From the IMG/VR virus record IMGVR_UViG_2832442593_000001, positions 88,020 through 152,019 of that record: a stretch of 64,000 nt of DNA; one strand, written 5' to 3'. A program made the position numbers and the translations under genes. Numbering within the stretch: position 1 is the stretch's first letter; every line of letters begins with the position of its first letter. Origin of the DNA: a virus (Duplodnaviria > Heunggongvirae > Uroviricota > Caudoviricetes). This document shows, in pieces, positions 24,571 through 24,664 of this stretch. Below the pieces are notes generated by a model that had not been told where the DNA came from, did no database searches, and saw only the letters and a program-made list of their open reading frames with translations.

Positions 24571-24664
24571 GAGGAGTGGTGTAACGGTCAGCACGCAGGG
24601 TTCTAACCCCTGAGCAGGTGACACCCTGCGTCGGTCTGGGTTCGAGTCCCGGCTCCTCCGCCAG
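24571..24664 (+). tRNA. Suppressor tRNA, anticodon CTA (reads UAG amber), type II with long variable arm, discriminator G (Ser-like), CCA encoded
   Basis: D GTGT/GCAC. Anticodon stem CAGGG/CCCTG with loop TTCTAAC (U33, C34 U35 A36, A37). Variable arm GCAGG-TGACAC-CCTGC. T CTGGG-TTCGAGT-CCCGG. Acceptor AGAGGAG/CTCCTCC (1-72 A-C mismatch). Confidence 0.7.

Follow-up and report, generated by a model that had tools for sequence, protein, structure and literature searches.

A putative amber suppressor tRNA, scarce TAG stops and rare in-frame TAG codons in a temperate gut phage lineage resemble an early stage of TAG-to-glutamine recoding

Phages that use genetic code 15, in which TAG encodes glutamine (Gln), carry their own suppressor tRNAs; they include crAss-like and Lak phages, the Garnet and Topaz prophages and phAss-1 (bioRxiv 10.1101/2021.08.26.457843; PMC9523058; PMC10607447). 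Borges et al. (bioRxiv 10.1101/2021.08.26.457843) described the acquisition of a suppressor, the depletion of TAG and the recoding of late genes, and proposed that recoding gates late or lytic functions and may keep lysogeny apart from lysis. In the same work, a standard-code relative with a suppressor, of the type represented by Agate, was read as a step toward the code change. Here we analysed 64,000 nucleotides of a Caudoviricetes phage (IMG/VR virus record IMGVR_UViG_2832442593_000001, positions 88,020 to 152,019; hereafter the window), which encode a tRNA with the anticodon CUA (tRNA-CUA) at 24570-24663 on the plus strand. From sequence comparison, we consider it probable that the window belongs to a temperate gut Clostridia phage which has a functional amber suppressor, has purged TAG as a stop and uses TAG as a rare sense codon. 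The situation looks like an early stage of the known TAG-to-Gln code change.

Like the code 15 phages, the window lineage has a phage tRNA-CUA and avoids TAG as a stop, and like the recoded Garnet and Topaz prophages it is temperate and has an integrase. Two further features of code 15 phages, namely the concentration of TAG in late genes and the alignment of TAG with Gln, were found through a sister lineage (IMG/VR contigs 131771, in full 3300045988_131771, and 143321), which has about 50% GC and is about 77% identical to the window lineage in a YonJ-like protein. While 41 of the 147 open reading frames (ORFs) of phAss-1 are interrupted, only three TAG-containing genes were found in the window lineage, where the coding density under code 11 is normal; many interrupted genes were found in the sister lineage instead. 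The window phage also differs from the code 15 phages in the long variable arm and the A1.C72 mismatch of its tRNA and in having no close deposited relative, and at its GC content of about 48% the depletion of TAG is not the low-GC effect of the published model. A further parallel in arrangement is Agate (Fig. 3A of bioRxiv 10.1101/2021.08.26.457843), a near-standard-code genome with a suppressor tRNA beside a recoded close lineage. However, Agate concerns TGA and Trp, whereas the codon here is TAG, and a conserved in-frame TAG under selection is already present in a replication-initiator-like gene.

Ten tRNAs were found in the window by ARAGORN. The one with the CUA anticodon is 94 nt long and was supported by ARAGORN, by the Rfam tRNA model RF00005 (50.3 bits; gathering score 29) and by the consensus fold of its family. 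An earlier note on this DNA had described a tRNA with anticodon CUA, U33 and A37 in the tRNA cluster, on which ARAGORN and the sequence agree, but it placed the gene at 24571-24664 and the 5' end lies one base earlier. The 7-nt anticodon loop TTCTAAC is at 24601-24607 with the anticodon CTA at 24603-24605, flanked by T33, A37 and C38. The D arm consists of a 4-bp stem and an 8-nt loop, and the variable region of 23 nt (24613-24635) forms a 5-bp stem with a 6-nt loop and a 6-nt 3' tail. The T loop is TTCGAGT, the discriminator is G73, and CCA is encoded. Since the 5' nucleotide, an A at 24570, is opposite C72, the first acceptor pair is mismatched (A1.C72); G2:C71, A3:U70 and G10 were also observed. 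The minimum-free-energy fold of the lone sequence is not a cloverleaf (z-score -1.18), and the structure was therefore taken from covariance models and the family alignment. The tRNA sequence is the same in 19 loci of the lineage despite differing flanks and neighbouring genes, which indicates that the gene is maintained by selection. It looks like a working amber suppressor and would be expected to decode UAG.

ARAGORN labelled this tRNA 'Pyl', a label that reflects the anticodon alone. A tRNA-Pyl identity was rejected, because the variable region has 23 nt rather than 3 nt and the D loop has 8 nt instead of being very small. Pfam scans of 30 of the roughly 112 window proteins, comprising the 10 that were largest or of special interest and 20 of the 31 others of at least 140 aa, contained no pyl-type gene, aminoacyl-tRNA synthetase or release factor.

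Directly upstream of the tRNA cluster is a sigma-70-family gene (23471-23986, plus strand; Pfam Sigma70_r2 and Sigma70_r4_2). Immediately before the tRNA-CUA gene, a tRNA-like element that lacks an anticodon arm but has the acceptor, D and T arms was identified by sequence, fold and alignment at 24508-24563 on the plus strand. The element is also found in the sister lineage (L098, about 1621-1677), and compensatory changes in its T stem were seen in L082 and L087. In one close relative (L085, contig 113551), the tRNA-CUA locus is occupied by a 76-nt tRNA (3899-3974) with the same D arm and no variable arm. It has G1-C72, A73 and an 8-nt anticodon loop, UUUCUAAC, for which ARAGORN gave the four bases UCUA as the anticodon; the contig keeps the in-frame TAG of the RepA_N-like gene described below.

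TAG is nearly absent as a terminator. A codon-usage gene caller found 110 genes on the plus strand of the window (about 112-116 genes were called in total), with TAA as the stop in 70, TGA in 38 and TAG in 2 (37746-37943 and 61117-61809). In related phage loci with GC of at least 0.42 and no tRNA-CUA, TAG accounts for 54 of 260 stops (21%). The probability of two or fewer TAG stops among 112 genes is 1.6e-9 at a TAG frequency of 21% and 2.6e-5 at 13%. In frame +1, the out-of-frame count of TAG is near expectation (144 against 159), so the loss of the terminator is not a general avoidance of the trinucleotide; over codon junctions (frame +2), 48 TAG were seen and 136 expected. The only ordinary-looking TAG stop in the window ends a small membrane-protein gene on the plus strand (37746-37943), where read-through would add 4 residues and not the 5 stated before. 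The other TAG-ended call is the read-through case of a homing endonuclease. Thus the near-absence of TAG stops in the earlier note held, although its count of one in about 135 genes has to be changed to two in about 112. That note had also raised the prospect of frequent TAG stops in the rest of the genome; in the late genes of the window lineage on contig 140941 (IMG/VR 3300045988_140941) the stops were TAA in 28, TGA in 12 and TAG in none (0/40). Two exceptions were seen in relatives. DnaG ends with TAG in the close relatives L003-L006, where read-through would give 20 additional residues, while the DnaG gene of the window (52069-53058) ends with TAA, and the variant L307 contains a tandem TAG-plus-stop.

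The clearest sense TAG in the window lineage is in a RepA_N-like gene on the minus strand (1057-1437; Pfam RepA_N E = 1.3e-14), which has 126 codons, starts with an ATG at 1437 and stops at 1057. Its codon 11 is an in-frame TAG at 1407-1405 (plus-strand positions 1405-1407), and the ribosome-binding site GGAGGAGG precedes the ATG. The TAG, the ribosome-binding site and the ATG had all been noticed before in what was called a RepA_N fragment, and only the minus-strand orientation is a correction. The TAG was kept in 11 of 11 variants, some of which are 9-10% divergent in DNA. The ratio of nonsynonymous to synonymous polymorphism (pN/pS), calculated by the Nei-Gojobori method, was 0.03 in the 10-codon leader, 0.21 in codons 12-49 and 0.07 in the remainder, values which are qualitative since the five comparisons are not independent. 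With pN/pS well below 1 and the TAG present in every variant, the gene does not behave as the decaying pseudogene that the earlier note had considered. The next in-frame ATG is only at codon 50 (position 1290), within the RepA_N domain, and hence codons 12-49 can be translated solely by read-through of the TAG. Purifying selection on either side of the TAG argues that it is translated, and by these comparisons it is a real sense codon. The RepA_N genes of the sister lineage are 31-45% identical and contain no TAG, and so they give no clue to the inserted residue. Immediately downstream of the RepA_N-like gene are six iteron-like 22-bp direct repeats (769-899).

These observations also bear on the explanation that there is no functional recoding, in which the tRNA is inactive or a relic, the scarcity of TAG is compositional and the TAG-containing ORFs are pseudogenes. 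The non-cloverleaf fold of the lone tRNA sequence with its z-score, the low TAG count over codon junctions and the variant contig with a different tRNA and an 8-nt anticodon loop at the CUA locus could all be taken in its favour. It is nevertheless very improbable in our judgement, because TAG is undepleted in frame +1 and makes up 21% of the stops in related loci, the tRNA is unchanged amid varying flanks with covariation in all stems of its family, the pN/pS around the RepA_N-like TAG is low, and read-through restores full-length orthologs in the sister lineage.

A second, full-length RepA_N gene (322 aa) was found at 18718-19686, with 22-bp and 66-bp direct repeats (19095-19350) inside its coding sequence that resemble a plasmid-type origin. 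Beside the first gene, 2 kb between the leftward and rightward gene blocks (1440-3480) contain no convincing ORF. This region is rich in TAG, holding most of the 51 plus-strand TAGs of the first 3,480 bases, and metagenome assemblies frequently break in it. An Rfam search of 1440-3480 gave no match.

Outside the RepA_N-like gene, in-frame TAG was found in two more genes of the lineage. The first encodes an intron-encoded HNH/NUMOD1 homing endonuclease on the plus strand (61117-61932), with a TAG at 61807-61809. After this TAG, 40 further in-frame codons continue a NUMOD1 repeat, and the read-through product of 271 aa is in line with the 260-272 aa of more than 100 full-length homologs. The earlier note had placed this TAG within a NUMOD1 repeat, which is correct, and had aligned it opposite a Ser, which is uninformative as 110 homologs show a hypervariable column in which W, F and N are the commonest residues. 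The endonuclease gene lies in an insertion, probably a group I intron, that splits nrdD (59255-60997 and 62063-62554). In the relative L003, NrdD is uninterrupted (715 aa), and the mobile intron ORF is missing in some relatives. The second is a 74-codon ORF (33 codons, TAG, 40 codons) about 1 kb outside the window. It exactly fills the gap before a 981-aa gene, and its frame is preserved in one variant despite a one-codon deletion downstream of the TAG.

Genes were also called again with TAG as a sense codon, and four window genes were flagged, three of which have already been described. On the plus strand, a scan for neighbouring high-scoring segments with nothing but a TAG between them gave antisense shadow ORFs only. 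In-frame upstream TAGs were checked manually, and the only one was within the ribosome-binding site TTAGGAGG of gene 15133, which was rejected as an artefact of start choice.

About 120 kb of the window lineage (about 27,000 codons) was sampled on IMG/VR contigs, and in-frame TAG was found in these three genes only. No gene is interrupted under code 11 over 10 kb on the right side of the window and over 10-20 kb on its left side. In seven independent late-gene loci of 20 kb each, TAG is absent both as a stop and in frame, and two further genome steps were likewise free of TAG apart from weak ORFs and a single tandem TAG-plus-stop. The genes for portal, capsid, tail and lysis proteins are uninterrupted under code 11 and hold no in-frame TAG; apart from those exceptions, the sampled late and structural genes beyond the window, which the earlier note had singled out for a TAG count, lack TAG in both roles. 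TAG is not reassigned genome-wide in the window lineage. Of the reassignment that was first suspected, what remains is the suppressor tRNA, the loss of TAG stops and a conserved in-frame TAG that appears to be translated; recoding on the genome scale does not.

The sister lineage shows a different extent of TAG use. Its late genes are broken by TAG, and read-through restores the exact lengths of the orthologs, as in the YonJ-like protein (105+1+295 = 401 aa) and an HU-like protein (48+1+70 = 119 aa). On contig 131771, 19 in-frame TAGs were found among 10,172 late codons, distributed over 13 of the 29 late genes, compared with none in the 6,135 codons of the early genes (Fisher p = 1.7e-4). The corresponding tRNA cluster of this contig encodes a tRNA-CUA of 90 nt, which has A1.C72, G2:C71, G10, G73, CCA, a D stem of 4 bp and a long variable arm whose 3' tail is 6 nt. 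Its stem sequences differ from those of the window tRNA throughout, while the architecture is common to both. In the window lineage (L301, 15755-16803), about 830 bp are inserted behind codon 73 of a tape-measure-like gene that encodes 2190 aa in the sister lineage (L311, 14275-20847), and the remainder is in another frame.

The distribution of TAG can be set against another explanation, in which the suppressor acts mainly on the host, by read-through of host TAG stops, or against a defence, by standing in for a function under attack from the host, while the avoidance of TAG by the phage is self-protective and the in-frame TAGs are incidental or decaying. This would fit a tRNA that is invariant even though the window lineage has very few in-frame TAGs, and it would fit the endonuclease TAG, which is in a hypervariable column of a selfish gene where W (TGG) is the commonest residue. 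We consider it unlikely, since purifying selection acts on either side of a RepA_N-like TAG that is itself conserved and the sister TAGs are confined to late genes. The use of TAG as a sense codon in these genes is compatible with an additional effect on the host.

To infer the amino acid, 20 TAG positions of the sister lineage were aligned to orthologs. Gln was found at 14 of them (CAG at 13, CAA at 1), Lys at 4 (AAG), Glu at 1, Ala at 1 and Ser at none. At nine positions one sister contig has TAG and the other CAG, in proteins that are 95-99% identical between the two; with CAG in the outgroup as well, these represent recent changes from CAG to TAG. At two TAG positions of a 336-aa protein, Gln is also found in 12 of 14 and 13 of 15 homologs below 70% identity. 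A crude mutation-selection likelihood for the first 14 positions, with assumed acceptance weights, gave a ratio of 1:0.02:0.007 for Q:K:S. TAG is thus most likely read as Gln, as in code 15, which is the best-supported assignment.

The same alignments speak against a serine (Ser) suppressor. In that explanation the tRNA is of Ser type and is charged by seryl-tRNA synthetase (SerRS), and TAG is being reassigned to Ser. The earlier note had called the tRNA Ser-like for its type II shape and discriminator G; the long arm and G73 are indeed present, and together with G2:C71 they speak for Ser. SerRS is known to accept unusual long-arm tRNAs, nonsense suppressors included (PMC5389517). The phage tRNA-Ser(UGA) at 38166-38255 likewise has a 4-bp D stem and a short loop. 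However, no TAG position was aligned with Ser, while the 14 with Gln include conserved Gln columns. Nor are a 6-nt 3' tail behind the variable-arm stem and an A1.C72 mismatch typical of tRNA-Ser. Moreover, the D arm, the anticodon loop and the weak 1:72 pair are shared with 52 short-arm tRNA-CUA, which cannot be SerRS substrates, the long arm is present in just 13 of 65 unique family members, which argues against descent from a type II body, and a matching variable arm is found in a neighbouring tRNA(UAU) of relatives that has A73. We consider a Ser suppressor quite improbable.

The family comparison was based on a shared pattern of the D arm and anticodon loop, which was present on at least 119 IMG/VR contigs. 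Among the loci collected, ARAGORN identified 65 unique tRNA-CUA, 52 with a short variable loop and 13 with a long arm. Where the ends are unambiguous, position 1:72 is U.U, U.C, A.C, C.C, A.A, G.U or U-A and almost never G-C, so that the family is marked by a weak 1:72 pair; as discriminator, either G or A is present. The window tRNA has its D arm, anticodon loop and weak 1:72 pair in common with the short-arm members. RNAalifold on 12 long-arm members gave a cloverleaf in which position 1 is unpaired, the T stem has 5 bp and the D stem, of 4 bp, closes a 7-8-nt loop. In these 12 sequences G2:C71 and G10:C25 are invariant, and compensatory changes were found in the acceptor, anticodon, T and variable-arm stems. 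The tRNA(UAU) of relatives (94 nt; L081 3374-3467, also L082, L086, L094, L095 and L097) has the same type of D arm as tRNA-CUA, G1.U72, A73 and a long variable arm with a 4-bp stem and a 6-nt 3' tail, and it occupies the position of the window tRNA-Met (24164-24242). Since it bears the matching arm with A73, the arm seems to be a structural module and no signal for Ser. The simplest reading of the family is that the long arm was inserted into a Gln-type phage suppressor in some lineages. No description of the long-arm, 1:72-mismatched architecture for Gln-type suppressors was found in the limited literature searched. Other suppressor-type tRNAs were seen in distant low-GC relatives, one a short-arm tRNA-CUA beside a YonJ-like gene (L052, 11932-12006) and one a tRNA with the ochre anticodon UUA (L116, 13930-14009).

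The bacterial Gln identity set tabulated in PMC9976931 (Table 1) includes G73, G2:C71, G10, U35 and A37, all of which are matched by the window tRNA. Other members of the set (U1-A72, G3-C70, G36 and U38) are unmatched, the window tRNA having A1.C72, A3-U70, A36 and C38. The mismatch at A36 is inevitable for an amber suppressor, and A1.C72 is weak but not U-A. The sister tRNA-CUA has G3-C70 and A38.

Among Escherichia coli tRNAs, Gln-inserting amber suppressors are represented by supE, a tRNA-Gln with the anticodon CUA, and by su7, a tRNA-Trp in which CCA was changed to CUA. The su+3 tRNA-Tyr, which is type II, becomes a Gln acceptor through mutations at 1:72 and 73, a precedent and not a test for the tRNA studied here. 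The window tRNA resembles these suppressors in its CUA anticodon with U35, G73, weak or broken 1:72 pair, G2:C71 and G10; unlike these laboratory mutants of host tRNAs, it belongs to a natural phage gene family, and its charging with Gln is putative.

With the allo-tRNAs (PMC5389517) it shares the long variable arm, G73, the capacity expected of a nonsense suppressor and an association with Clostridia phages or elements. In allo-tRNAs the acceptor/T branch is 8/4 or 9/3, a tetraloop closes the long D stem, and the amino acid inserted is Ser (PMC5389517). An allo-tRNA identity was rejected, because in the consensus fold the T stem has 5 bp and the D stem 4 bp around a loop of 7-8 nt, and because the comparisons favour Gln. 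An eighth acceptor pair (T8.G65) is possible by eye and absent from the fold prediction.

Several points weigh against a Gln-inserting suppressor with sense use of TAG in the window lineage. A long variable arm together with G73 would by textbook criteria mark a SerRS substrate, and we know of no natural type II tRNA-Gln. A3:U70 and C38 deviate from the E. coli Gln identity set. The inferred residue depends on the sister tRNA, whose sequence is unlike that of the window, and the three TAG positions of the window lineage itself are uninformative on the residue. Charging with Gln would presume that the host has a glutaminyl-tRNA synthetase. The endonuclease TAG may simply reflect a selfish gene in decay, and the DnaG TAG stop in some relatives means that suppression is incomplete or that the extension is tolerated. 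The sampling covered all but about 4 kb of the lineage genome.

With these points in mind, the following course of events is proposed for a phage reading TAG as Gln. The tRNA-CUA would be expressed as part of the tRNA cluster that directly follows the sigma-factor gene on the early strand, and would most probably be charged with Gln by a host enzyme. As the tRNA reads UAG, the phage would have purged its TAG terminators, leaving TAG free as a rare sense codon. In the window lineage such sense TAGs would be those of the RepA_N-like gene, the 74-codon ORF and the homing endonuclease, and the sister lineage would be further along, with CAG-to-TAG changes accumulating in late genes alone. Messages with UAG would give full-length protein only when the tRNA is present, which may serve, as in the model of Borges et al., to gate selected proteins to the lytic programme. 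In the window lineage the gated product would, speculatively, be the RepA_N-like protein beside the iterons. A joint proposal goes further and is offered tentatively, as one we think rather less likely to be right than wrong: the long-arm, 1:72-mismatched tRNA-CUA would be an unrecognised type II-shaped class that delivers Gln, or at least not Ser, and the codon-11 amber of the initiator-like gene by the iterons would be a translational lock. Such a lock would tie replication or late function to expression of the phage's own tRNA.

The window itself encodes DNA polymerase III alpha with an intein, DnaB, DnaG, the split NrdD, ThyX, dUTPase, the sigma factor and many small genes. The polymerase gene (53118-57215) encodes 1365 aa, compared with 1096-1097 aa in L004-L006. 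By exact-protein look-ups the window was found on metagenome contigs of up to 169 kb, where one flank has integrase, lysin and tail genes and the other has YonG/YonJ-like genes, which are also found in Bacillus phage SPbeta, the HU-like gene and portal and capsid genes. In L005 the element is integrated beside bacterial genes. The integrase, lysin and structural genes together with this integration indicate a temperate phage of about 100-130 kb. Among deposited phages, megablast of 10 kb and tblastn of the portal found nothing closer than 24% identity. In a scan of genome contigs, prophage relatives with 59-72% identity were mostly in metagenome-assembled genomes (MAGs) of Lachnospiraceae, with single MAGs of Oscillospiraceae, Anaerotignum, Dorea, Bacteroidales and Mailhella; no close prophage was found in the scanned contigs.

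Other RNA-related features were seen in the window. A gene for a DUF2828/DUF7788/vWA protein (36196-37749) is flanked by tRNA-like RNAs at 35144-35262, 35907-36035 and 37991-38062, which were scored as tRNA by Rfam and not called as normal tRNAs by ARAGORN. In two of these RNAs there is an insert of about 50 nt, with AAGTTCGCTGACAGCAA in common. Nearby, at 35587-35703, YrlA (Y RNA-like) was matched weakly and below the gathering threshold (E = 0.049). The protein and the flanking RNAs may form a Ro/Y-RNA-like module. A P-loop kinase (AAA_33/Zeta-toxin-like; 27375-28016), a metallophosphoesterase (45760-46404) and an HD-domain protein (47912-48529) could act in RNA or tRNA repair or in nucleotide metabolism.

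Suppressor tRNAs of phages, the depletion of TAG, recoded late genes and prophages, and relatives that keep the standard code but carry a suppressor are already known. What sets the present case apart is the phage group, its moderate GC content, the sparse use of TAG with one selected amber in an initiator-like gene, the sister pair with ongoing CAG-to-TAG change, and the long-arm, 1:72-mismatched tRNA. For annotation, gene callers truncate the RepA_N-like gene, the homing endonuclease and many late genes of the sister lineage unless code 15 is tried. The tRNA may show that a long variable arm alone does not define Ser identity, which bears on automated isotype calls and on tRNA engineering. 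The pair of lineages would capture a change of the genetic code early and at moderate GC, and it makes the published order of suppressor, stop-codon depletion and late-gene recoding testable in a temperate gut Clostridia phage.

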